Shown: positions 4,628 through 55,372 of the stretch, one piece after another
Layout: every line of letters starts with the position of its first letter
Position numbering within the stretch: the first letter of the stretch is position 1
From: a virus
Lineage: Duplodnaviria; Caudoviricetes
Strand: one strand, 5' to 3'
Virus record (IMG/VR): IMGVR_UViG_3300014204_000011
Coordinates: 1-64,000 of that record
DNA length: 64,000 nucleotides
Notes under the pieces: model-generated
What the model was told of the DNA's origin: nothing
The model's input: the letters and a program-made list of their open reading frames with translations, nothing else
The model's database searches: none
Made by a program: the position numbers and the translations under genes

Positions 4628-5682
4628 TTGCTGATAAACAAGGGTATAAAAGGGGTTATCGAGATGGATATAACAGTAGAAATAATTAAAATATCAATTA
4701 CAGTATTGCTTGCTGCTCTTTTCTTTATAACTCTTCCTGGACTTGTAAATCAAAAAAGATATGATAAAGATGAAGAAAAATGTAAAAATTGTTCTATAAG
4801 TAATGGAACATGGTATGAATACTGTAATGGATGTAAAAAAGATAATTTTAAAGGTTTTAAGGAGAAATTATGAAACTAATTCATTGGCTCACGGATATGT
4901 TTAAAAAACGGCATGATTTAAAGCTAGCTATTATTGAAAGAGAGCGAACACAGGCTTGCAAAGACAGACTCATGTTACTCCGTCAATATGAAAGAGATAT
5001 AAAAAAGCATGATGCAGATTTAAGAAAAGAATTTGAAAATGAATTAAAAGAAAAAATGGAATCAAAACAAGATGAGATTGATAATTTAAAAAATTTAATT
5101 CGTTACATAAAAAATAGCGGTGAGAATATTCAAATATTAAGCAATGAATTTGAAATGGAACTTAGAAGTTTATTGCTTATGCTTGGTCGTATGCAAAATA
5201 GATTTGGAAATATTGAAGACAGAGCATTCAGGGAAACTAAAAAGATTGAAAAGAAAGTTGATAAATTTATTCAAGTGGAAGATATATGAGCGACCAATAT
5301 TTTAAAGATAAAGCAGATGAAATTTTTAAATTAGTAGAAATGAATATTAATTTCGAGGATATTTATAAAGCCATTTATATAGGACTTAAAGAAGTTGCTC
5401 GTGATCAAAGATATGCTTGTATTGATGCTGTTAGAAATTATCCGCATACAGATGCAGTTAGCAATCTACAAGGATTAATTCAAAATGCTAATATTGAGGT
5501 AAAAAATGAATTTAAAACCAATTCCATATAATGATTTAACTAATTTTATAAATAAAAGCGCAGAACATAAAAGATATATGGAATTTATGACAGAATTAGT
5601 TTGTGAGACTATGGGATTAAGTCCAGATGATTTAAAATCTAAAACTCCAGGATATACTATTAAATTAAAGGATAAATCATGA
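4628..5682 (+). CDS. four hypothetical ORFs (4628-4873 membrane/Cys-rich, 4870-5289 coiled coil, 5286-5531, 5506-5682)
   Basis: ORF track plus manual translation; overlapping start/stop codons. Confidence 0.55.
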
Positions 5683-6548
5683 CTAAAAAAAAGATCAATA
5701 TATTACCGGCAATAATAAAAGAACCAGAAAAAAATAATCTGGTTCTTGCTGTTGATAGGCTTAAAAGCATAAGTCCGGAAACTAAAAAAACTTATAAATT
5801 CGCTATGAAAAGCTATGATAATTATTGTAAATCAAAAGGTGTTGTTGCGGATCTTGACAGTTTAATGGCCTGGCTTGAAAGCGTAGATGCCAGCACTACA
5901 CAAATGACTTATATAGCAGCGGTTAAAAAGATATTTTCCGAGATTTATCGAAATGATCCTAGATTACCGGATTTAAAAGCTAGTTTGGAAGAGATAAGAC
6001 CGGTTAAAAGAGATATGACGATAACCTCATCAAAATATCTGACTAAAAAAGAAATAGATGAACTAGTTAAAATCAGCCCTCCCAGATTATCTCTTATGAT
6101 CGAAACCATGTTTATTACAGCTCTTCGTATATCTGAATTATTAAATCTTAGGCATGATCACATGACTGAGGTAAAAGACGGTAAAAAAACTTATTATGAA
6201 ATGAGAATTGTGGGTAAGAGAAATAAGGAAAATACGGTTTATATAAGCTCAGAGCTTTACAAGAGAATAAACAAAGTTTTCAACAGTAAAATCTTTTTAT
6301 TTGAACATAATGGCAGGCAATATCGGAGAGAATTTATCACAATGGAGATTAAGCGTTTTGGTAAACTCCTGGGTAAAAATATCAGTGCCCATAAAATTCG
6401 ACACTCACGGGCCATGAATCTTGCCGAAAGAGGGGTAAGTCTGGATAAAATAAGTAAATTCCTTTGCCATGCCAGTATAGGAACTACGGCTGGGTTTTAC
6501 CTGCATTCTAAACCTTCTTTAGATGAGTTAAATATATATAAAAAGTAG
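5679..6548 (+). CDS. tyrosine recombinase (XerC/D-like)
   Basis: LRISELL (catalytic R), HKIRHS (HxxR), FLCHASIGTTAGFY (His and Tyr nucleophile); 289 aa. Confidence 0.92.
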   Translation: MTKKKINILPAIIKEPEKNNLVLAVDRLKSISPETKKTYKFAMKSYDNYCKSKGVVADLDSLMAWLESVDASTTQMTYIAAVKKIFSEIYRNDPRLPDLKASLEEIRPVKRDMTITSSKYLTKKEIDELVKISPPRLSLMIETMFITALRISELLNLRHDHMTEVKDGKKTYYEMRIVGKRNKENTVYISSELYKRINKVFNSKIFLFEHNGRQYRREFITMEIKRFGKLLGKNISAHKIRHSRAMNLAERGVSLDKISKFLCHASIGTTAGFYLHSKPSLDELNIYKK

Positions 6549-6887: not shown

Positions 6888-7499
6888 TTAAAAATTTCTT
6901 ACAATCCATTCCAAAGCTTTTTTCTTACTCATTAAATAATTATTTAATTGTCTAAAATCATTATTTTTAGATATTTCACTTATAGTCCAGTTGCCATTAT
7001 ACCCCCTAATGGAAAATTTTAAATCCTTATAATCAACAACAATAAACTGATCCCCTTCTTCTATTATTTCAAATTCATCTTTTATATCATATAGTTTATT
7101 AGTCTTGCCATATATATATTTTTTTGATTCAATAGTTTTAAGAACTTTACGAGCGACTTCATTTGTTATTTTTTCAAAACTTTTATCATCAACTTGTAAT
7201 GCTCTTATTACCGGAATAATTTTACATATAACCCATTTCTTAAAAGCTTTAGAATTAGGTTTGTCAGATCTTATAATTAAATTATAAAGACCTGATTCGT
7301 TAATAATATATACTGCCCCAGATAAACCTCCCATGTTAAATATAGTCACTTCATCATCATCAAGCATTGCTATTGCTTTTGATACATCCGATAATTCCAG
7401 AATATCACACACATCTTTTGCGACCCAGAAAACCTCTCCATTAACCTCTACTGTTCGCAATTCTTTTGATTCATAATTAAAAATCTGTAATTCTTGCAT
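6888..7499 (-). CDS. Bro-N domain antirepressor-like protein
   Basis: MQELQIFNYESKELRTVEVNGEVFWVAKDVCDILEL...INESGLYNLIIRSDKPNSKAFKKWV. Confidence 0.92.
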   Translation of the reverse strand: MQELQIFNYESKELRTVEVNGEVFWVAKDVCDILELSDVSKAIAMLDDDEVTIFNMGGLSGAVYIINESGLYNLIIRSDKPNSKAFKKWVICKIIPVIRALQVDDKSFEKITNEVARKVLKTIESKKYIYGKTNKLYDIKDEFEIIEEGDQFIVVDYKDLKFSIRGYNGNWTISEISKNNDFRQLNNYLMSKKKALEWIVRNF

Positions 7500-11452: not shown

Positions 11453-11667
11453 TGAAAAGTAAATATTCTAAATGGATTCCGCTAACCGTTTATAGTAATG
11501 CAATGATGACACGGTATTTGCTTATGGCAAGGAAAAATCATAAAACTGGAATTATCAGTTTTAAATCTGTAAAAGTAAATAGAGTTACATCACATGATAC
11601 TTTTCTTACTACTTTAGAAATGAGTACACAGTTTAATAAATTACTTGAAGAGGTTGAAAGTAAATGA
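11452..11667 (+). CDS. hypothetical protein
   Basis: ORF track; stop/start overlap. Confidence 0.55.
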   Translation: MKSKYSKWIPLTVYSNAMMTRYLLMARKNHKTGIISFKSVKVNRVTSHDTFLTTLEMSTQFNKLLEEVESK

Positions 11668-11966
11668 AAAAGTTAATGTTTATATTTTTATTGTTTTGTT
11701 TCATAGGTTGCAATGAATTTACCGGAGATGGAATTGTTACTGATAAAGGTATTGATTATATTGATATCCGGACGATGATAGACGGATTCGGAATTAAAGA
11801 AACTGTAAAAAGTGATCCTAATAGTATTTCTATGTACTGGATTAAACTTAATACTTGCGAAGATAAAATATATATAAATCAATTTTCATGGGAAGATCTG
11901 GAAATTAAAGATTTTGTTAAAGTTGGGCCGGAGCATTCTGATATAAGATTTCAGAAGGAATATTGA
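11664..11966 (+). CDS. putative lipoprotein
   Basis: [16 protein letters not shown] signal peptide with lipobox-like Cys. Confidence 0.7.
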
Positions 11967-20929: not shown

Positions 20930-22270
20930 ATGAAACAATTAATCGGACATGATATAGGAACTTATGTTTTTGATAAAGTCGCAAAAACTATAAAATTTTC
21001 TGGTGTTACTATTACACAAGATCAAATATTATCAATTACAAATACAACTCATGGAATAGTATTATATTTATTTAATAAATCTACACTTTCTGGTTCTTTT
21101 TCAGTCGATACATTGACGCTTGATTATGATACCTCTTCAATGGCAAATACAGATAAATTACAAATATTTATAGATATACCGAATGTAATAGAAATTATAA
21201 AACCAGTTGATGAATTAGACGTTGCTTATGGTATAAAACAAATTGATGGAAAGCCTAGAGTTTCATCAATGCCTTATGTTTATGATATTGCAGAAGGAAA
21301 TGTTCTTAATCATTATCCATTGACAAAAATAGGATATTTGCCTTCATTTACTCAGAATGTAAATACTGATGTTTGGAGTTATGGAGGAGTACAACCTGTA
21401 TATTTATTTCCTGACGTTGCTATGGGTATGGAATTTTTAAGCTCTGATAATACTGATGATATAGGTACAGTTATAAAATCAGGAACATCTACAGGTGGAA
21501 CAATTACAAGTCTTATAGATTCAGGAGTTGATTTTACTACCGCTACAGCAGTGGCAGTAGGAGATTGTGTAGTGCTTGATAAATCAGGAACTACACCTGA
21601 ATTTGGATATGTAACTGCAATAGCGCAACATGAACTTACAATAGCAGGTGGATTTAGTTCTGGTGGATCTGGATTATCTAGGGCTTATGAGATAATAGAC
21701 TCAAGTGCTCATGATGGAGGACATGCCGTAGAAATATCCGGTTTAAATGGGAATTATGAAGAACAAAAAGAAATAGGAATTTTAAACGGAACTACTGTAA
21801 TACCAACAGTTAAATTAACATGGTTTAGAATAAATAGTTTTAGAATAATAGCTGCTGGTGTAAATAAATTACCAACAGGAAATTTAACCATTCGACATAT
21901 AAACAATACTCCTGTTTATAGTTATATTACGACAAAATTCACTAGAGCGAGAAATGCTATGTATAATACTGTTCCTTTAGGTAAAAATTTATATGTGACA
22001 GATGTTTCTGGTGGTTATGCAATAGCAGGAAGCCCAAACAAAGAATATTGTAGAATTACAACAAAAGCAAATATTGATCCTACAACTAAATTTAAAACAG
22101 ATGGAATATTTTATCCTTTTACCGATTTATTTGCACAAAATATATCTGTTTCAATAATGTTTACTATGCCTACAAAATTACCTCAGAAGACAGATATAAA
22201 AATTTCAGCGATAGGCAGTGCGAGTGGATCAGTAATTTCAACATTAAGAGGTTGGTTGGAATCAAATTAA
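20930..22270 (+). CDS. putative virion appendage protein
   Basis: Gly/Thr/Ser-rich beta protein; N-terminal YVFDKVAKTIKF...LTLDYDTSSM domain recalled from phage structural proteins. Confidence 0.5.
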   Translation: MKQLIGHDIGTYVFDKVAKTIKFSGVTITQDQILSITNTTHGIVLYLFNKSTLSGSFSVDTLTLDYDTSSMANTDKLQIFIDIPNVIEIIKPVDELDVAYGIKQIDGKPRVSSMPYVYDIAEGNVLNHYPLTKIGYLPSFTQNVNTDVWSYGGVQPVYLFPDVAMGMEFLSSDNTDDIGTVIKSGTSTGGTITSLIDSGVDFTTATAVAVGDCVVLDKSGTTPEFGYVTAIAQHELTIAGGFSSGGSGLSRAYEIIDSSAHDGGHAVEISGLNGNYEEQKEIGILNGTTVIPTVKLTWFRINSFRIIAAGVNKLPTGNLTIRHINNTPVYSYITTKFTRARNAMYNTVPLGKNLYVTDVSGGYAIAGSPNKEYCRITTKANIDPTTKFKTDGIFYPFTDLFAQNISVSIMFTMPTKLPQKTDIKISAIGSASGSVISTLRGWLESN

Positions 22271-22308: not shown

Positions 22309-22623
22309 ATGCAGCAACAACAATTTCAGATTTCAAATGAAATTTTATTACAGATTATTGTCTGGCTTGGTTCTGTCAGTATTGGTTTGTTATTTACTAT
22401 CGGGGGTATTATTTTATATGTATTTAGAAAATCTACCAAAGACAATGACAGTGAACACTGTAGAATTGAAACCGATAATAATTCAGAACATATTAGAATT
22501 GAAAAAACGATAACAGATAAATGTAGTGAAATATCTTCTAATCTCTGTATTTTTAGAAAAGAAATTAGAGATGATATAAAAGGAGTCCACGCTAGAATAG
22601 ATTCACATTTAGAGGTAGAATAA
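22309..22623 (+). CDS. single-TM holin/antiholin-like protein
   Basis: hydrophobic ILLQIIVWLGSVSIGLLFTIGGIILYVF followed by coiled coil; internal repeat DNDSEHCRIE/DNNSEHIRIE. Confidence 0.5.
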   Translation: MQQQQFQISNEILLQIIVWLGSVSIGLLFTIGGIILYVFRKSTKDNDSEHCRIETDNNSEHIRIEKTITDKCSEISSNLCIFRKEIRDDIKGVHARIDSHLEVE

Positions 22624-23181
22624 ATGAATAAATCACAAGCAAATATTTTAATTTCAATAATAGAAACTCATTTTCAGTTTCAAAAACAACATCCAGGAAA
22701 AAGATCTATTCTTTTTGATGATATTAAGAAAGTTCTGGAATGCTCTCAAGATTATGCTGAAAAATTTGCTAGTACACATTGTAATATGGTTAGTTTTTGG
22801 GGACTTAATTATTCTCAGAAATTAACTACTATGCAGTATGATGAATTTTTTGAAAATATGCTTGAAAATAATTTTTGCAATAAAGAAGGTAAGATCAAAG
22901 TTGAAAAAGGTGTTGTCTGTGAACAAATCTTTGGATATGATTTTAAAATTAAATATTTTGAAGACTATGAAGATGTTTTAAACCCTTTGACAAGATTAAA
23001 TCCTGAAAAAGGATATCAGCTTAAAATGAAAGGCGATACAAGCGGATTTCATTTTATTGCATGTTATATAGATGTTGAAACCGGTTTAATGATGGGTGTA
23101 GATTCAAGTTATAGAGGTACACCTTTTATATTATCCGAAAAAGTTAATTCTAAAAATTTTATATGGTTATTAGAGGTTTAA
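22624..23181 (+). CDS. putative C39-like cysteine peptidase (candidate endolysin)
   Basis: HCNMVS, FHFIAC and GVDSSY give papain-like C/H/D order; lysis-type context. Confidence 0.35.
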   Translation: MNKSQANILISIIETHFQFQKQHPGKRSILFDDIKKVLECSQDYAEKFASTHCNMVSFWGLNYSQKLTTMQYDEFFENMLENNFCNKEGKIKVEKGVVCEQIFGYDFKIKYFEDYEDVLNPLTRLNPEKGYQLKMKGDTSGFHFIACYIDVETGLMMGVDSSYRGTPFILSEKVNSKNFIWLLEV

Positions 23182-23182
23182 A

Positions 23183-23380
23183 ATGACTAAAAAGCATGAA
23201 ATAGATAATAAATATGAAGCAGGTACAAGCATTTTCAAAGAAACTTTAAAAAAATGGTGGGCCGTAGCTTTTTTAATAATAATTTCAGGAGCAATATTTT
23301 TTATCTTGCAAATTAAAACATTTCAGTGTGGTAATGTAGTTATTGAGAAAGATCCAATAAAAACACCATTAAAAAAATAA
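23183..23380 (+). CDS. small single-TM protein (holin/i-spanin-like)
   Basis: KKWWAVAFLIIISGAIFFILQIK. Confidence 0.45.
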   Translation: MTKKHEIDNKYEAGTSIFKETLKKWWAVAFLIIISGAIFFILQIKTFQCGNVVIEKDPIKTPLKK

Positions 23381-23390
23381 GGAGAATATA

Positions 23391-24155
23391 ATGATTAGAG
23401 ATTTTCTTATTGTAATATTTATTTTTTGTTTAACTCTTGCGTCTTATGCTTCAGAATATGAGTCTCCAATGTCAATTTACAAAGATAATTATATAATTGC
23501 CGGAGATAAAGACAATCAGGTAAAAATTCAATTATCAGCAAAATTTAATATTTTTTATCCTTCAAATACCGGATTTAATTTGGGTTATACGCAATTAAGC
23601 AATTGGTATTGTTATGGCGACAGAGATACTTTTTATACTATGTACTGCCCTGAAGTTTTTTATAGATTTGAAAGTGGTAATAATCTATTTGATAATGCTG
23701 TTATACCTTTTATAGATTTTTTACAAGTATCTCCAATAGAACATAATAGTACAGGTGTTGAAGGTGAAAATCATAGAAGTATAAATCAATATTATGCACA
23801 GGCTCAATTAAGTTATGGAGAGGTTTATAATGTAGGTGCTGGCGGTAAATATTTTAGATACTATTCTATAAGTGATAAAAATGAAGATATAAATAAATAC
23901 AGAAAAAATTATGAAGCAGATATATTTTTTAAAATACGATCTAAAACTGTAAATTATTTAGATAAAGAGGAACTACATTTTAAATTTGGCGGTAATCCTT
24001 TAGGTAATGGCTGGTATTGTATAGAGGCTCAATTCAGGCTTATATCAAGTAAATTTCAGCCAAAATTTATGATCCAATACTATAAAGGATATTCGGAATT
24101 CATGGTTCAATATAATCGCAAAGATGAAGCGGTAAGGATAGGGTTAGTATTTTGA
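23391..24155 (+). CDS. pldA: outer-membrane phospholipase A (OMPLA)
   Basis: signal peptide; NY..., VKIQLS and YTQLSNW motifs; HNSTGVEGENHRSIN has the H/S/N triad spacing of E. coli HDSNGRSDPTSRSWN; C-terminal Phe. Confidence 0.88.
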   Translation: MIRDFLIVIFIFCLTLASYASEYESPMSIYKDNYIIAGDKDNQVKIQLSAKFNIFYPSNTGFNLGYTQLSNWYCYGDRDTFYTMYCPEVFYRFESGNNLFDNAVIPFIDFLQVSPIEHNSTGVEGENHRSINQYYAQAQLSYGEVYNVGAGGKYFRYYSISDKNEDINKYRKNYEADIFFKIRSKTVNYLDKEELHFKFGGNPLGNGWYCIEAQFRLISSKFQPKFMIQYYKGYSEFMVQYNRKDEAVRIGLVF

Positions 24156-24319
24156 GTAATATAAAAATACCGGCAGAAATATGGTGTAGAACTTGCGGTT
24201 ATTTTCGACCTATAGCAAATCAAAATAAAGGTAAAGCTGAAGAATTTAGAGAAAGAGTTAATTTAAAAGTTCCTTCTCATGAAGTTTTATCTTCTCAAGT
24301 TAAAAGGAGTATATCATGA
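24152..24319 (+). CDS. 55-aa stand-alone NrdD C-terminal (glycyl-radical) domain-like peptide
   Basis: TTG start overlapping the pldA stop; EIWCRTCGYFRPIANQNKGKAEEFRER matches the class III RNR tail R(V)CGYxRP..xNxGKxxEFxxR. Confidence 0.75.
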   Translation: MSNIKIPAEIWCRTCGYFRPIANQNKGKAEEFRERVNLKVPSHEVLSSQVKRSIS

Positions 24320-24648
24320 ATAAAATAAAAATAATAATTATATGTCTTTTAATTCTTTCCGGTGCTGCTAATATTTTTTTCTTATCTGGTTGTAAAAGCT
24401 TTGATCCTGTAATCGTTCCAGGTCAACCGGATGAATGTAATGATTTTTATTCAGTTATGAAATATTATTCAGTTGAGGGCAAAGACAGTGCTTTTGTCGG
24501 TACAGTTTATAATGAATGTAAAATAGCAAGAACTAGTGTTCGTTTACAAATTAGAGAGAAACACTGTAAAGAACTTATATATGGTCAAGTTGAATTAGAT
24601 AAAGCTGATTATAAGAGATATTCAGAATATCAGGAATGTTTGAAATAG
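24316..24648 (+). CDS. lipoprotein (o-spanin candidate)
   Basis: AAGGAG RBS; hydrophobic leader ending in the LSGC lipobox; several Cys. Confidence 0.7.
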   Translation: MNKIKIIIICLLILSGAANIFFLSGCKSFDPVIVPGQPDECNDFYSVMKYYSVEGKDSAFVGTVYNECKIARTSVRLQIREKHCKELIYGQVELDKADYKRYSEYQECLK

Positions 24649-24654
24649 ATATTT

Positions 24655-26043
24655 ATGCCTGATGATAAAGACCAACAACATGAAGTCAAAGAAGAAAGAT
24701 ATGTTGAAGATTTAATTCTTTATTATCAGACTTATGTAAATGCGGTTATAAATGAAATATTTGTAGGTATAGGCATAAGTCTTGGTCAGACAGAAAAACA
24801 AGCTTATGCAATGGCTAAGACAGATCCTAAAAAACTTGAAAAAGCATTTTTTAAAGATGTATTTGAAAAGTTTAAAAATGTATTCAAACATAAAATTCCT
24901 AAATTCAGATTAAAACAAAATATATTTAACAAAGGCAAGCCATTAACCGAAAAGCAATGGGATGTTATAAGTAAAGCAATAGCTGAATACTGGAAACAAA
25001 ATACTTCCAAAGTCACTGAAGATGTAACTGTAAAAGGTTATGTGCTAGGCATAAAATCCTCTAAATATCGTAAAACTAAAATTGATAACACTAAGAAAAC
25101 CTTACCTGAAATAATCAAACATGAAGAAAAGGAAAGCGGAAAAAAATTTGCAGATAAGTTTGAAGAAGCTTATAAACGCTATGATTTTAAAAATAGTGAA
25201 AAAAATGCTATGAACAGGGCTTTTTCAAATATAGCTATGCACGTTTCTGATACTGGTGATGGAGTTAAGCAAGCCATAAGAAAAGTTGTTACTGAAGGTA
25301 TAAATGAAGGTAAAAGTCCGGTTGAAACTGCTTCAGATCTATATTGGAATATTCAGAAAGAAACCGGTAATGAAACTGCTGAAAGTGTAAGAAAAAATTG
25401 GAATAGGATTGCTGCAACAGAAATGAATTCAATATTTGAAGCCGGTATTTTAGCTCCTTATGAAGCACAGGCTATGGAAAGCTTGAAGACCGGTAAGGGT
25501 GTTTATTTTGTCAGAGTAAACGGAACGTGCGATTGGTGTAAACCAAGACAGGGTACTATAGTTAGATTAGTTCCTACAAGCATAGTAGGTGATGTAAATG
25601 ATGACAGTTTAAAATCTATGGGTATTGATGATCCCTATACCGATATAGCTATATGGGTAGGTAAAAACAATGTAGGTAGGAAAAAACAGGACTGGCTTAT
25701 ATGCTGTCCTGCTCACCCATTTAACAGAGCAAGCTTTTCACTTATTGATTTAGATACACAAGAATATGAACCTAAATTTGGAAGAGTAGTTAATAAAGTT
25801 CCTGAAAGTTTAAAACAATATGGAATTAAAAGAGATACATCTTTTGCAACTCCGGAATATAAAGAAAGTAAAAAACCGGTTAAAATAGGTGATAATCTTG
25901 TAAGATTTTATGATAGTGTTTATGAAGCTGTAGACAAAGAAAATTATAATAAGAAATTAGAATTATGGAAAAAAGATCCATCTCAACCTATACCTGTTAG
26001 TCGTAGCAGTACAGATTATAAACATATTTTTGGTGATTTATAA
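24655..26043 (+). CDS. MuF/SPP1 gp7-like head morphogenesis protein
   Basis: NWNRIAATEMN, CDWC and CPAHPFNR motifs; LEKA site near the N-terminus. Confidence 0.8.
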   Translation: MPDDKDQQHEVKEERYVEDLILYYQTYVNAVINEIFVGIGISLGQTEKQAYAMAKTDPKKLEKAFFKDVFEKFKNVFKHKIPKFRLKQNIFNKGKPLTEKQWDVISKAIAEYWKQNTSKVTEDVTVKGYVLGIKSSKYRKTKIDNTKKTLPEIIKHEEKESGKKFADKFEEAYKRYDFKNSEKNAMNRAFSNIAMHVSDTGDGVKQAIRKVVTEGINEGKSPVETASDLYWNIQKETGNETAESVRKNWNRIAATEMNSIFEAGILAPYEAQAMESLKTGKGVYFVRVNGTCDWCKPRQGTIVRLVPTSIVGDVNDDSLKSMGIDDPYTDIAIWVGKNNVGRKKQDWLICCPAHPFNRASFSLIDLDTQEYEPKFGRVVNKVPESLKQYGIKRDTSFATPEYKESKKPVKIGDNLVRFYDSVYEAVDKENYNKKLELWKKDPSQPIPVSRSSTDYKHIFGDL

Positions 26044-26816
26044 TGATCTTTGATATTAATCAAGATATTATCATGGACACCATAATGTCAAATATTGAAA
26101 ATGCAAAAGAAGAATATATTCAAGAAATAATTGAACGTATAGATGATTCAATTCCTGGAGTTTTAGAATTACTTTTAAATGATTCCACTGAATATTGGAA
26201 AGAAACCGCAATAGGCAAAGGTGGTGGATGGGGAGAAATATATGCCAGTGCCATTAAAAATAAAGGTACAAGTGATGGTGGCGAAGTTTATATTGATGAA
26301 AGTGTAAAAGGTAAAAATAATAAACCTGCAAAAATGTTTTCAGAAATGGTAGAAAAAGGTGTTAAAAGTTGGTCAATACAAGATGCACTCTTAGCAAGTT
26401 CAAAGGCTAAAACAAGTAAAGATGGGATAAAATATATTGTAGTACCTTTTCCTGTTCGTACACCTTCTAAAAAAGGACAGGGTAAAGTAGGTTCAAGGTT
26501 TGGCGGTAGAGAGATGTCCTCTGATGTGTATAAAATTGTAAAAAGTGGTGGTAAAATATCTAAAGGAACAATGCTTACAACTGCATCAGGAAAAGAAATA
26601 GATATTGGAGGTCTTACAAGATTTCAAACACAAAAATTTCATAGTGGTTATGGTATATTTAGATGTGTAAGTAAAAATTCTAATGGATGGCAATATCCTG
26701 ATAAATCTCCAAGACCGGTATTTCCAAGTGTTGTAGATTATGTAAATAAAAGAGTGGCAGAAATAATTGAAGAACTCTGCCAAGCTATTGTTAAAGAATT
26801 TGATATGAGAGATTAA
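26043..26816 (+). CDS. neck/tail-completion-type structural protein
   Basis: YIVVPFPVRTP...GIFRCVSKNSNGWQYP pattern recalled from large-myophage neck proteins. Confidence 0.5.
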   Translation: MIFDINQDIIMDTIMSNIENAKEEYIQEIIERIDDSIPGVLELLLNDSTEYWKETAIGKGGGWGEIYASAIKNKGTSDGGEVYIDESVKGKNNKPAKMFSEMVEKGVKSWSIQDALLASSKAKTSKDGIKYIVVPFPVRTPSKKGQGKVGSRFGGREMSSDVYKIVKSGGKISKGTMLTTASGKEIDIGGLTRFQTQKFHSGYGIFRCVSKNSNGWQYPDKSPRPVFPSVVDYVNKRVAEIIEELCQAIVKEFDMRD

Positions 26817-27604
26817 TCAAAAACCTTAATCTTTATATTCTCACCAATTCTTGACGGATCTCCTCCATAAATATTAAGTTTATTTTTTATATCATCCTGA
26901 AGAGTATAATGAGTATTACCGTTCTTACATACTTTTAATTTAAAATACTCGTTTTCTGATTCAGGTTTTTTATTAGTTCTTAATTGATCTATAATTGTAT
27001 GATCTGGTAATTTTTTTCCGTCCAGGATATAACAAAGTTTCTCAAGATCATCTGTAATAGTTGGCTTATCTCTATAATAACCAAAAACACGAGAATAATC
27101 ATATGTGGTTATAATAAAGGTTGTATCTATGCCGTTATTGTTACGTTTCTTTTTAGTGCTGGAATTGTAATTACTACCTCCAGTATAATAATAACTGTCT
27201 GTAATTCGTTCATAAACTGATTTCATCATGGTTTTGATATTATCATAAATAATATCTTTTAAACTGGCTATATATCCTTCGGCGTTTTCAATAGTAAATA
27301 CGGGAAAATCAAATTGATCAATTTGTTTCTGCATTTTTTCATAATCAGTACAGAGCATATATTTTTCAAGTTCAAATAATCTGATAAGATATTGCCAGCA
27401 TGTTCTATCAATGTATTTTTCAGCTCTGTTATCACTATAATTATCAAATCTATATTCAATTCGATAAGGTCGATAACCTTTAATTTCAGAAAGATCTTTT
27501 TCTATTTCATTATCAAGCTTTTCAAGCATTGATAATTGAGTTAAAAGTATTTGTTTAAGATTAAATATTTCAGTTATTGATTTGCGCTTTACTGGTAAAT
27601 TCAT
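26813..27604 (-). CDS. DUF4942-like protein
   Basis: IDRTCWQYLI, DDLEKLCYILDGKKLPD and ENEYFKLKVCKNGNTH match the recalled DUF4942 pattern. Confidence 0.7.
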   Translation of the reverse strand: MNLPVKRKSITEIFNLKQILLTQLSMLEKLDNEIEKDLSEIKGYRPYRIEYRFDNYSDNRAEKYIDRTCWQYLIRLFELEKYMLCTDYEKMQKQIDQFDFPVFTIENAEGYIASLKDIIYDNIKTMMKSVYERITDSYYYTGGSNYNSSTKKKRNNNGIDTTFIITTYDYSRVFGYYRDKPTITDDLEKLCYILDGKKLPDHTIIDQLRTNKKPESENEYFKLKVCKNGNTHYTLQDDIKNKLNIYGGDPSRIGENIKIKVFD

Positions 27605-52659: not shown

Positions 52660-54453
52660 ATGCCAACAAGTAATATAGTACAATATTCTAAAGATATGAT
52701 GAATAGTCCAAGCATTAGTGGAAATACTAATGCTCATAAAATTATATTCAATGCTGGAATTGAGTCTTCTCTTGAATATGCCGAACCTAAAAAAAATATA
52801 GTTCCTAAAATCCAACTTCTATTTTCTCCTTTTGGATTGCCTTTTATACCTTTGGAAATAGTCGGTTCTGATATGGGTAAAATAATATCTCAATTGGGCT
52901 GGACTAAAGATAGAACAAATGCTGGAGGCGTATTATCTATTTCTATTACCCCTGATTCTAAAAGTATTAAAGATATGGTTAATATTTTAAATAAATATTC
53001 AGGTAATTATTATTCTAAAATTTGGGGAGAACTTGGCGTTGATTTAGAAGATTTATTCAAACCTATGACATTATGCCAGCTTTGGATTAATGGTTATCAT
53101 GTTATGACTGGTACTGTTAATTCATGTAGAAGAGGTGCTTCTGTAGGTAATAATTCAAAAGAAGTTTATTATAATATAAGCATAAATGAATTAGGTTGTT
53201 TATATGATTTTAATATAATAAGCCTTGATACTAATATTTTTGATGGACTTAAAACTGTTACAAAAGATTCTATAAAATCAGCTTTAGAATTAGTTTCTAA
53301 TATAAAAGGCCCTTCATTATCTCAAGGGATTCAAGCTTTAGTTACGGCTTTTTTAACTACATTTTTACAATCCGGTGTCAGCCTTAGTGATGGATTACCT
53401 TTATTTCTAAGAATGATCGCAAAAGAAAGTCCTTTGGGCGGTTTATCTAATCTTTCATATGCTCAAAATATGATTGTAGATACAGCAATGTTTGAACTTA
53501 GCGGAGGTCAATCATTCTGGAGTTTTTTAAAAAATTTCATCCCTAATCCGTGGATGGAAATTTTTACAGAAAGTGGAGGTAGAACTTTTGTTTCTGATAA
53601 TTTAGGAACTCCGGCTGTTCTTTTCCCTGGATTTAATTATATAATTTCAAGATCAGTACCTTATTCAAATCCTTTATTAGGTATAGTAAATCCATCTATG
53701 TTAGCACAAACCGTACCTTTTGATTTAAGTGCATTAAATCTTTTATTAGGTGGAGATTTTATAATTATTACAGATGATGATATTCAAGATAAAGATCTTG
53801 GATTTGATTCATCTAATCAAAGCACAATTTTCCATGTCAGATATTCTGCAAATGGTGGGATGATGCCTTTAGATAATGATGATAAGCCCATTCATTCCAT
53901 AGGCCCATTAAACCCCCTTGCAAGTGGGGGTATGAAAACTTTTGGATTAAGGGATATGTTTCAAACTATAAATTGTACTCATTTATTTAATATGGGTACA
54001 GCTTCAAATTATGTTGAACGTCTTGCTAAAAACAAACTTGGATTTCCTTTGGAGATAATGTCTAAACCTGCAATGGCTAATCTTTTGGCGGTTTGGTTTA
54101 GAAATCAAAGTAGATTTAGAGAAGGTAGCGTTACGACAAGATGTATCCCTTATGCAAGAGCAGGTATGTATTGTCTTTATCTTCCAACTATAAGCGGTAA
54201 AAAAGTAGAAAATTTAAGAGATATTGGAATTTATTATATTGATAGTTTAAGTCATAATTATGCAATAATGAATAATTCAGTATCTTTCACTACAAATCTT
54301 AATTTAATTAGAGGCGTACCTTTACCTTTAACCGTAGCTCAAACAGCTTTATTATTATTTGATTATGAAATATTACCTCCTGAAAGTGGTTTATGGGACG
54401 GAGAATATGCGATTTTATCAGCTTTAAGAAAATCTTTAGAATTTGGAATTTAA
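52660..54453 (+). CDS. baseplate hub protein
   Basis: 597 aa after TMP; C-terminal REGSVTT...YARAG..YYIDSLSHNY...TNLNLIRG. Confidence 0.7.
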   Translation: MPTSNIVQYSKDMMNSPSISGNTNAHKIIFNAGIESSLEYAEPKKNIVPKIQLLFSPFGLPFIPLEIVGSDMGKIISQLGWTKDRTNAGGVLSISITPDSKSIKDMVNILNKYSGNYYSKIWGELGVDLEDLFKPMTLCQLWINGYHVMTGTVNSCRRGASVGNNSKEVYYNISINELGCLYDFNIISLDTNIFDGLKTVTKDSIKSALELVSNIKGPSLSQGIQALVTAFLTTFLQSGVSLSDGLPLFLRMIAKESPLGGLSNLSYAQNMIVDTAMFELSGGQSFWSFLKNFIPNPWMEIFTESGGRTFVSDNLGTPAVLFPGFNYIISRSVPYSNPLLGIVNPSMLAQTVPFDLSALNLLLGGDFIIITDDDIQDKDLGFDSSNQSTIFHVRYSANGGMMPLDNDDKPIHSIGPLNPLASGGMKTFGLRDMFQTINCTHLFNMGTASNYVERLAKNKLGFPLEIMSKPAMANLLAVWFRNQSRFREGSVTTRCIPYARAGMYCLYLPTISGKKVENLRDIGIYYIDSLSHNYAIMNNSVSFTTNLNLIRGVPLPLTVAQTALLLFDYEILPPESGLWDGEYAILSALRKSLEFGI

Positions 54454-54454
54454 A

Positions 54455-55372
54455 ATGCCTATAGGAAAACAAAGACGCTTTGCTAAAAATAATGGAAGAG
54501 ATACACATGTTAGAAGTGTTGAACGAGATTTATTTAAAGTACAATCTACAAAAACTTTTGAAATAAAAACAGGTGAAGTTTTTTTAAATCAGGTTGAACC
54601 GGCTTTTAAACAAAATGCAGTATCAATAAAATTATCTAAAGGTGGTCGAATTGACGGAGTGCCTTTACCTGGTGCTTTCATTGATCCTTTTACCGGAAAT
54701 TTACATGGAAGTTATGAAGGTGTTATACCTGGTCAAATGATAAGCATAGGTTTTGTTGATGGTAATAGCGCAGCTCCAATAATTTTAAATAGATATCCTT
54801 ATCAAGGCAAAGGAAATACTTTAGTTGAAGATCAGTTTCTTACACCTATGTATAAAGCCGGATATATGGCAACAGATGTTCTTTTGGGACATTTTAGCGG
54901 ATCTAAAATTGGTTTATACACTGGCGGTGGTCTTAATGGGGCATTGCCTGGAAGTATAGGTATAGATGCTTTTACAGAATGTAATGTCACGGCTAAAACA
55001 AATATATTATTAGATGCTCTTGTCAGTGCTGAAGTTAAATCAGCTATGATTAAATTAACAGGTAGCACAAGTATTGAATCTTCTGCTCCATCAATTAAAT
55101 CCAACGGAAGTACAACGAATGAAATAAGTGCGCCTTTAGTTAAAATAGATGGAAGTGCAACTGTAGAAATAAATGGGAATACAAAACAATTTGTAACATG
55201 GTTGGAATTAAATACAGCACTTCAATTGCTTATATCTGCAATTACAGTTCCTTTAGTTGTAACAGGTGCAGTTCCGGCTTCTCCCCCTAATCCTGTAACA
55301 GCTTCATGGACTATTCCACCAACAATAGATATAACACTTGCTAAAACAACAAAAACATTATGCGGTGCTTAG
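54455..55372 (+). CDS. baseplate spike (gpV/gp5-like)
   Basis: OB-fold-like N-terminus (ISIGFVDGN) and beta-repeat C-terminus. Confidence 0.7.
   Translation: MPIGKQRRFAKNNGRDTHVRSVERDLFKVQSTKTFEIKTGEVFLNQVEPAFKQNAVSIKLSKGGRIDGVPLPGAFIDPFTGNLHGSYEGVIPGQMISIGFVDGNSAAPIILNRYPYQGKGNTLVEDQFLTPMYKAGYMATDVLLGHFSGSKIGLYTGGGLNGALPGSIGIDAFTECNVTAKTNILLDALVSAEVKSAMIKLTGSTSIESSAPSIKSNGSTTNEISAPLVKIDGSATVEINGNTKQFVTWLELNTALQLLISAITVPLVVTGAVPASPPNPVTASWTIPPTIDITLAKTTKTLCGA

Follow-up and report, generated by a model that had tools for sequence, protein, structure and literature searches.

A phage-encoded outer-membrane phospholipase A within a candidate lysis cassette of a tailed phage

A phage of the class Caudoviricetes (Duplodnaviria), recorded as IMGVR_UViG_3300014204_000011 in IMG/VR, encodes a genuine member of the outer-membrane phospholipase A (OMPLA) or PLA1 family. 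The window analysed here is the first 64 kb (positions 1 to 64,000) of this complete 85,750-bp virus record, and the OMPLA gene lies at 23391-24155 within a tight block of six open reading frames (ORFs). The reading modestly favoured here is that 22309-24155 constitutes a lysis cassette, comprising two small membrane proteins, a papain-like peptidase and the phospholipase, and that OMPLA would attack the outer membrane. An earlier note on this DNA had suggested that the phage may breach the outer membrane enzymatically. Comparative genomics supports this suggestion rather than demonstrating it: OMPLA genes of phages are linked to a cell-wall hydrolase gene in nine of 12 evaluable contexts, and no rival endolysin was recognised in the genome. 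The ORFs of the block are as follows.

22309-22623, plus strand: 104-amino-acid (aa) membrane protein with one transmembrane segment.
22624-23181, plus strand: papain-like peptidase, 185 aa, with no transmembrane segment and no signal peptide.
23183-23380, plus strand: 65-aa protein with one transmembrane segment.
23391-24155, plus strand: OMPLA, 254 aa, Pfam family PLA1.
24152-24319, plus strand: NrdD-tail peptide, 55 aa, with a sub-threshold match to Pfam NRDD.
24316-24648, plus strand: lipoprotein, 110 aa, with a signal peptide, the lipobox LSGC and Cys26.

All six ORFs were found on the plus strand in the order that the earlier note had given. Its description of them as mostly coupled or nearly so agrees with the measured spacing: gaps of 0, 1 and 10 nt are followed by two 4-nt overlaps, and 6 nt separate the last ORF from the following gene. 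A scan for promoters and terminators performed no better than on shuffled sequence. Apart from OMPLA, none of the ORFs belongs to a significant Pfam or PHROG family; the 55-aa peptide has its sub-threshold NrdD match.

Profile, alignment and predicted structure agree on the identity of OMPLA. The protein matches Pfam PLA1 (PF02253) with 75.8 bits (E 5e-21, cut-off 27) over profile positions 35-256 of 257, and a six-frame search of the genome with the same profile scored 74.9 bits at this gene. Residues H118, S120 and N132 align on H142, S144 and N156 of the Escherichia coli enzyme (1qd6, 1fw2) with the same spacing. Among 20 relatives, whose identity to the protein of the window is 44-81%, the His-x-Ser-x11-Asn triad does not vary. 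An N-terminal hydrophobic stretch with predicted cleavage after SYA (residue 21) forms the signal peptide, and the C-terminus, ...GLVF, ends in the phenylalanine of a beta-signal. Signal peptide, terminal phenylalanine and triad spacing had each been proposed from the sequence, and each holds in the sequence and in the alignment with the E. coli protein. The AlphaFold model (predicted local distance difference test, pLDDT, 81) is a beta-barrel of 11 long strands with two short N-terminal strands. When it was compared with known structures by Foldseek, as the earlier note had proposed for PldA, the top eight PDB matches were all OMPLA (E 2e-9 to 4e-8, TM-score 0.64-0.68); the next fold followed at E 5e-4. 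The ratio of nonsynonymous to synonymous substitution rates (dN/dS) is about 0.1-0.3, a rough figure since synonymous sites are saturated. Metagenomes hold 47 close homologues, and a PHROG search with OMPLA gave no match.

The nearest characterized relative is PldA of E. coli and Salmonella (PF02253; 1qd5, 1qd6, 1fw2, 7ezz), which shares the family, fold, triad spacing, signal peptide, barrel and C-terminal aromatic residue. The phage protein differs from E. coli PldA in being about 20-22% identical to it, in its length (about 233 mature residues versus 269) and in lacking the N-terminal extension. It also carries a histidine at the position of the calcium ligand S152, and it belongs to a separate clade of short OMPLAs.

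The argument for a role in lysis comes chiefly from gene neighbourhoods. These were compared for 16 phage loci on about nine backbones, which gave the 12 evaluable contexts. In nine of them a cell-wall hydrolase is encoded no more than 3.3 kb from OMPLA, and the hydrolases are of five unrelated types: the papain-like family, Amidase_2, M23, SLT and a PHROG 'endolysin' family. The loci, which are referred to by their L numbers, are distributed as follows.

Window, L002 (same backbone), L008, L012 and L013: papain-like peptidase directly adjacent to OMPLA.
L016: Peptidase_M23 (51 bits), 0.2 kb upstream of OMPLA; Amidase_2 (71 bits), 2.0 kb downstream of it, with three membrane proteins in between.
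L041: Amidase_2 at 1.6 kb from OMPLA.
L019 and L040: proteins matching PHROG 33083 'endolysin', 12 nt from OMPLA in L019 (E 5e-11) and 0.6 kb from it in L040 (E 2e-11).
L009, L010 and L014: one family of secreted SLT-like proteins, 1.5-3.3 kb from OMPLA.
L007, L015 and L017: no recognised lysis gene near OMPLA.
L011: not evaluable, cut by the contig end.

The papain-like peptidase stands directly beside OMPLA on three phage backbones. On that of L012 and L013, the order of a transmembrane and coiled-coil protein, papain-like peptidase, OMPLA, small two-transmembrane protein and lipoprotein is the order of the window. The portal and MuF proteins of L016 are 61% and 44% identical to those of the window phage, and OMPLA occupies the same slot between portal and MuF genes; the 69-kb record of L016 contains no other Amidase_2. 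The two PHROG 33083 proteins are 59% identical to each other, and the SLT-like protein exceeds the Pfam cut-off in L014 (25.8 bits) and is borderline in L009. Small transmembrane proteins flank OMPLA in several lineages. By our own rough estimate, such proximity would arise by chance with a probability of about 0.06 x 0.02 x 0.02 when only the three long records, of 69, 156 and at least 64 kb, are counted. The hydrolase partner changes and yet the link persists; it is therefore not simply inherited. A changing partner with a persisting link is the mosaic pattern typical of lysis cassettes. The earlier note had named a lack of lysis linkage among phage pldA homologues as grounds for giving up its proposal, and the survey of their synteny found that linkage in the nine contexts described. 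Its other computational ground, flanking genes that have nothing to do with lysis, did not overturn the proposal either.

The 185-aa peptidase is a candidate for the missing endolysin. Its model (pLDDT 96) has a papain-like fold nearest to C39 peptidase domains, and the structural matches from VIA include the C39 domain of PCAT1 (Z 9.4), ComA (9.2), staphopain (8.9) and the pseudomurein endoisopeptidase PeiR (8.8). The nearest named shapes in the ESM Atlas are Peptidase_C39_2 clusters (TM-score 0.55-0.64), some of them fused to SH3_3; Atlas features likewise gave a C39 lead, with a low count of shared features. SH3_3 domains bind the cell wall. Residues C53, H143 and D160 do not vary even in homologues of only 21% identity, and the family is rare, with 106 representatives among 1.84 billion. 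Searches by sequence found no Pfam family at E up to 0.1 (PF03412 and PF13529 included), no PHROG match and no match by tblastn among 50,697 deposited phage records, and the family profile met only noise among PDB sequences. Foldseek against the PDB returned nothing significant (E 0.01 or worse, all papain-like folds), and neither did BFVD (E 0.0065 or worse), where the hits included peptidase domains of virion wall hydrolases. Among the scanned ORFs no ABC transporter turned up, and no double-glycine leader peptide is evident in the neighbours of the peptidase.

The label of candidate C39 peptidase in the earlier note is thus upheld for the fold and the Cys-His-Asp triad and falls for membership of the bacteriocin-processing family, outside which the protein is placed for want of a profile match, an ABC exporter and a double-glycine substrate. 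C39 and C39_2 peptidases (PCAT1, ComA; PF03412, PF13529) share its papain-like fold and have Cys, His and Asp in the same order. The phage protein differs in that it stands alone, is predicted to be cytoplasmic and lacks a hidden Markov model match, an ABC transporter and a double-glycine substrate; its context suggests a wall hydrolase. A six-frame search of the complete genome found no SLT, Phage_lysozyme, Amidase_2, Amidase_3, CHAP, NLPC_P60, Peptidase_M23 or Peptidase_M15_4 domain, and PHROG and Pfam scans of most ORFs above 100 aa identified no lysis gene. Because these eight hydrolase families are absent and the ORF scans offer no other lysis gene, the papain-like protein, putatively cytoplasmic, is the best endolysin candidate of the window phage. 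It appears to take the part that the amidase and M23 genes have in L016, as a non-orthologous replacement.

Two small proteins are candidates for the inner-membrane step. The 104-aa protein has an N-terminal transmembrane segment (about residues 10-38), followed by a charged and probably helical C-terminal tail of 65 aa. A homologue in L002 conserves the motif VHxRIDSH and has a tail of about 44 aa. The protein is a candidate holin or antiholin; a role as inner-membrane spanin (i-spanin) is less likely because the tail is short. Proteins with an N-terminal transmembrane segment and a coiled coil hold the same position in L012 and L013, and homology to them is not demonstrable (hhalign probability 1%). 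The 65-aa protein has a single transmembrane segment, basic ends and the conserved tail QCGNV(V/I)IEK, with a homologue of 47% identity at the same position in L002. It is a candidate holin by its architecture. In L012 and L013 an unrelated two-transmembrane protein of 57-60 aa adjoins OMPLA. Neither the 104-aa nor the 65-aa protein matches a Pfam or PHROG family, holin families included.

Spanins were sought in the complete genome, in which two lipoprotein genes were found in addition to that of the block.

11664-11966, plus strand: lipoprotein gene, 100 aa, just upstream of the terminase region, with no PHROG match.
68816-70240 of the genome, beyond the window, minus strand: lipoprotein gene, 474 aa, with a Gly/Ser-rich linker and no Pfam or PHROG match.

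None of the three genes (11664-11966, 24316-24648 and 68816-70240) has an adjoining partner with an N-terminal transmembrane segment, and none of the products has a C-terminal one. In this search, which went by architecture only, no convincing pair of i-spanin and outer-membrane spanin (o-spanin) and no unimolecular spanin (u-spanin) was recognised in the genome. The 104-aa protein and the lipoprotein of the block were considered as a spanin pair and rejected: the genes are 1.7 kb apart, the tail is short and the lipoprotein family travels alone elsewhere.

The last two ORFs of the block have a history of their own. The match of the 55-aa ORF to Pfam NRDD covers the final 30 positions of the profile (E 6.6e-5, 22.2 bits, cut-off 26.2), and homologues of the ORF carry precomputed PF13597 matches. 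The 'NrdD-like peptide' of the earlier note is hence correctly named, being homologous, by a sub-threshold Pfam match, to the glycyl-radical C-terminus of the class III ribonucleotide reductase NrdD. The lipoprotein (lipobox LSGC, lipid-bearing Cys26, four further cysteines) belongs to a family with 44 metagenomic homologues, an almost invariant core ECNDFY...DSAFVGTVYNEC with four cysteines, and no Pfam match. PHROG searches with the lipoprotein and the NrdD-tail reached chance level only (E 0.045 and 0.023). Between the window and L002 the NrdD-tail is 76% identical, OMPLA only 64%. The NrdD-tail recurs with OMPLA in L016, L015 and L041. In three phages with lambda-like heads the lipoprotein lies near the NrdD-tail with no OMPLA (the two overlap in L035 and are one gene apart in L033 and two genes apart in L037). 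Because the pair recurs without OMPLA in these phages, it is regarded as an independent mobile unit. The lipoprotein is probably, by profile comparison, a remote relative of the lipoproteins downstream of OMPLA in L012 and L013 (hhalign probability 80%, E 1.5e-5); because these relatives follow OMPLA there, a functional tie between lipoprotein and OMPLA is possible. The lipoprotein is probably not an o-spanin.

The NrdD mini-gene, 48-55 aa, was seen at 24152-24319 of the window and in L016:7854-8762, L041:7221-7379, L033:5662-5808 and L035:5837-6004. In unrelated phages it adjoins OMPLA, the lipoprotein family, Amidase_2 and HNH/NUMOD4 endonucleases. In L016 its reading frame is that of OMPLA, and no stop codon intervenes before the signal peptide of the phospholipase. 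L019 and L008 have a full-length nrdD gene just ahead of OMPLA, which in L019 is accompanied by an adjoining nrdG. The mini-gene may either encode a working peptide or be a scrap of an exon that a homing endonuclease has carried along.

OMPLA itself is mobile. The short OMPLA clade consists mostly of phage genes and is well separated from other bacterial OMPLAs (98/96 support), and branching within it ignores phage backbones. Because the gene tree does not track the backbones, OMPLA is concluded to move as a single gene. Such movement is compatible both with the mosaicism of lysis cassettes and with an accessory gene. Its carriers are not confined to temperate phages, because in a complete 155.6-kb OMPLA phage no tyrosine integrase was found. 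A cellular short OMPLA, 53% identical and nested in the phage clade of the tree, was observed at L039:5001-5774, on a bacterial contig of 55% G+C where its own G+C content is host-like; it lies between GGDEF and DUF5329/AcnX genes and adjoins a giant alpha-2-macroglobulin gene.

Among deposited phages the gene was not encountered. A tblastn search with OMPLA against the 50,697 deposited phage records gave no match, and a divergent OMPLA query (P0062) recovered from them only mislabelled bacterial contigs and one 4.3-kb fragment. This fragment, L043 (MT839379.1, 'UNVERIFIED Bacteriophage sp.', human faeces), was rejected as an OMPLA phage: its ORFs look bacterial, the genes being OMPLA-like, a glycosyltransferase and a TPR/LuxR-type regulator. 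No genuine phage with OMPLA was thus found in the deposited records searched, and in the literature library that was searched no paper combining phage, OMPLA and spanin came up.

A mechanism can be proposed for the lysis cassette. (i) To judge from their shared orientation and tight coupling, its genes would be transcribed with the late structural genes. (ii) OMPLA, which has a signal peptide, would be exported via Sec, and the beta-barrel assembly machinery (BAM) would insert it into the outer membrane with the help of the C-terminal phenylalanine. (iii) By analogy with E. coli OMPLA, it would wait there as an inactive monomer, while the peptidase, having no signal peptide, would accumulate in the cytoplasm. 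(iv) A holin, either the 65-aa or the 104-aa protein or both, would open the inner membrane, and the peptidase would cut the peptidoglycan. (v) Envelope damage would move phospholipid to the outer leaflet, upon which OMPLA would dimerise and hydrolyse phospholipid. (vi) Lysophospholipids and fatty acids would finally weaken the outer membrane, and the cell would burst. Colicin lysis proteins activate host OMPLA. For phage-induced lysis, too, a change of host OMPLA from the monomer to an active dimer has been reported (PMC11457642). Step (v) is proposed because of these two kinds of activation.

A stronger form of this proposal, which is possible yet rather unlikely, makes OMPLA the sole outer-membrane disruptor, so that an enzymatic class would join spanins and the phage phiKT disruptin as the third. 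The enzyme would then be silent until the envelope is damaged and would fire by itself after holin and endolysin had acted, with no dedicated trigger. The neighbouring lipoprotein could modulate it, as colicin lysis lipoproteins activate host OMPLA.

Several observations weigh against a lysis cassette. No cassette gene of the window matches a known holin, endolysin or spanin family in Pfam or PHROG. Where the E. coli enzyme has its calcium ligand S152, the OMPLA of the window has His128 and some relatives have Ser. The cassette is smaller than the earlier note had it: the proposal of one six-gene lysis-like unit survives for 22309-24155 and is given up for the NrdD-tail and lipoprotein genes (24152-24648), which form the separate pair. 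Late-expressed accessory genes, moreover, often adjoin lysis genes in temperate phages, as bor and stx do in lambdoid phages. An alternative that we consider unlikely is that OMPLA is a mobile accessory gene, or moron, with a benefit unrelated to lysis (outer-membrane lipid homeostasis, stress tolerance or colonisation), and that the lysis region is a common landing site for late-expressed cargo. This would account for a gene tree that departs from the backbones, and for the closest relative, the OMPLA of L007, which is 79-81% identical to that of the window and sits in an unrelated context with a DUF7448 protein and an endonuclease VII-like gene as neighbours. A resident bacterial homologue, 53% identical, is nested inside the phage clade; integrase-like genes occur in G000, G001 and G003, that of the window phage included among the unfavourable points; the neighbours of OMPLA include the mobile NrdD-tail, HNH endonucleases and the lipoprotein family; and L007, L015 and L017 have no lysis gene nearby. 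A moron is nevertheless difficult to square with a gene that starts 10 nt after one neighbour and overlaps the other by 4 nt, inside a long late operon that shows no terminator-like site. That hydrolases of five unrelated types occur near OMPLA in nine of 12 contexts is hard to reconcile with a shared landing site, and the complete 155.6-kb phage carries OMPLA with no tyrosine integrase.

Two further explanations would leave the phospholipase, or its neighbour, a different task. OMPLA may act at or after lysis and not open the outer membrane, either by clearing outer-membrane debris and vesicles, whose receptor-bearing pieces could otherwise trap progeny, or by remodelling the surface so that superinfection is blocked. 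The same late, envelope-directed context suits this role as well; lipoproteins accompany OMPLA in the window, L012 and L013, and phages do carry receptor-destroying or exclusion functions. We nonetheless rate it as quite improbable: no direct evidence for it was found, and what OMPLA tracks is the endolysin gene, not the genes for tail fibres or receptor binding; the exceptions are L017 and L041, with tail-fibre-like genes upstream. The least probable of the explanations is that the 185-aa peptidase is a C39-like processing protease that matures or regulates a neighbouring envelope protein, in which case the block would modify the envelope and its link to lysis would be indirect. Its top structural matches are C39 leader-peptide peptidases, bacteriocin-processing enzymes at Z of about 9 where unrelated best matches typically reach 7-8. 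It has no sequence match to any peptidoglycan hydrolase family, and ten longer proteins with the peptidase domain show no Pfam match and no wall-binding domain; these points, too, are unfavourable to a lysis cassette. The cassette, however, holds no ABC transporter or double-glycine leader substrate, and the peptidase takes the position of Amidase_2, M23, SLT or PHROG 33083 proteins in other OMPLA phages. The genome is otherwise devoid of a recognisable endolysin, some C39_2-like clusters are fused to SH3_3, and PeiR is among the top matches.

The lysis cassette would form part of a long late region in a phage distant from those in collections. The 85,750-bp record has 98-bp direct terminal repeats and a G+C content of about 30%. 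Small and large terminase genes and a tail sheath gene were recognised in the genome, and replication genes lie at its far end. The capsid protein shares no more than 28% identity with its counterpart in any deposited phage, and the terminase reaches about 42% at best with any cultured phage. Megablast of 13 kb of the window against the 50,697 deposited phage records gave no match, and a pattern scan of 185,579 species genomes had its best match at 40% identity, on a small contig of a metagenome-assembled genome. Other features of the window are listed below.

5679-6548: integrase-like gene (PHROG 1, E 2e-28), in the genome with terminal repeats.
6888-7499, minus strand: BRO-N gene.
Portal gene of Phage_portal type, assigned from a precomputed Pfam match of the 90%-identical L002 homologue.
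20930-22270: virion structural gene, the upstream neighbour of the six-ORF block.
24655-26043: MuF-like head-morphogenesis gene, the downstream neighbour of the block.
26813-27604, minus strand: DUF4942 gene, first of an opposite-strand block of small genes directly after the head genes.

At 54443-55372 the tail and baseplate block closes with a gene that glycerophosphoryl diester phosphodiesterases match weakly in PHROG (E 2e-6). Its product would be a further type of lipid- or teichoic-acid-directed enzyme, probably attached to the virion.

Lysis systems that deal with an outer layer are known. The established answers to the outer membrane are membrane fusion by spanins, which join inner and outer membranes, and one cationic peptide, the disruptin of phiKT. 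The proposed phospholipase resembles spanins (lambda Rz/Rz1, T1 gp11) and this disruptin in that a last step of outer-membrane removal is assigned to a gene inside the lysis cassette; the protein is unrelated to them and would hydrolyse lipid. The closest functional precedent is LysB of mycobacteriophages, a soluble esterase with a cutinase-like fold. LysB is a lipid-cleaving mycolyl-arabinogalactan esterase of the lysis cassette, which defeats the outer layer after the endolysin has acted (PMC5707550). It differs from the phage OMPLA in its substrate and in the envelope concerned, a mycomembrane, and it is not an integral outer-membrane barrel. Other phospholipases, too, have been found beside phage or phage-type lytic genes. 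The patatin of phage WO has been proposed to aid phage entry or exit (PMC3173496), and the phospholipase A2 (PLA2) TtaP lies in the typhoid toxin islet, where the phage-type muramidase homologue TtsA is reported as well (PMC11525133). Unlike OMPLA, these belong to other enzyme families and are not membrane barrels, and neither is known to act in phage lysis.

To our knowledge, it has yet to be explained how phages of Gram-negative hosts open the outer membrane when they have no recognisable spanins. Phage OMPLAs that track the endolysin gene across at least six phage lineages are concrete candidates for enzymes by which ordinary diderm bacteria might be opened, and the rare papain-like family is a candidate for a new type of endolysin. 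If the proposal is true, a phospholipase with built-in, damage-sensing activation could be useful for the control of lysis and for weakening outer membranes alongside lysins.

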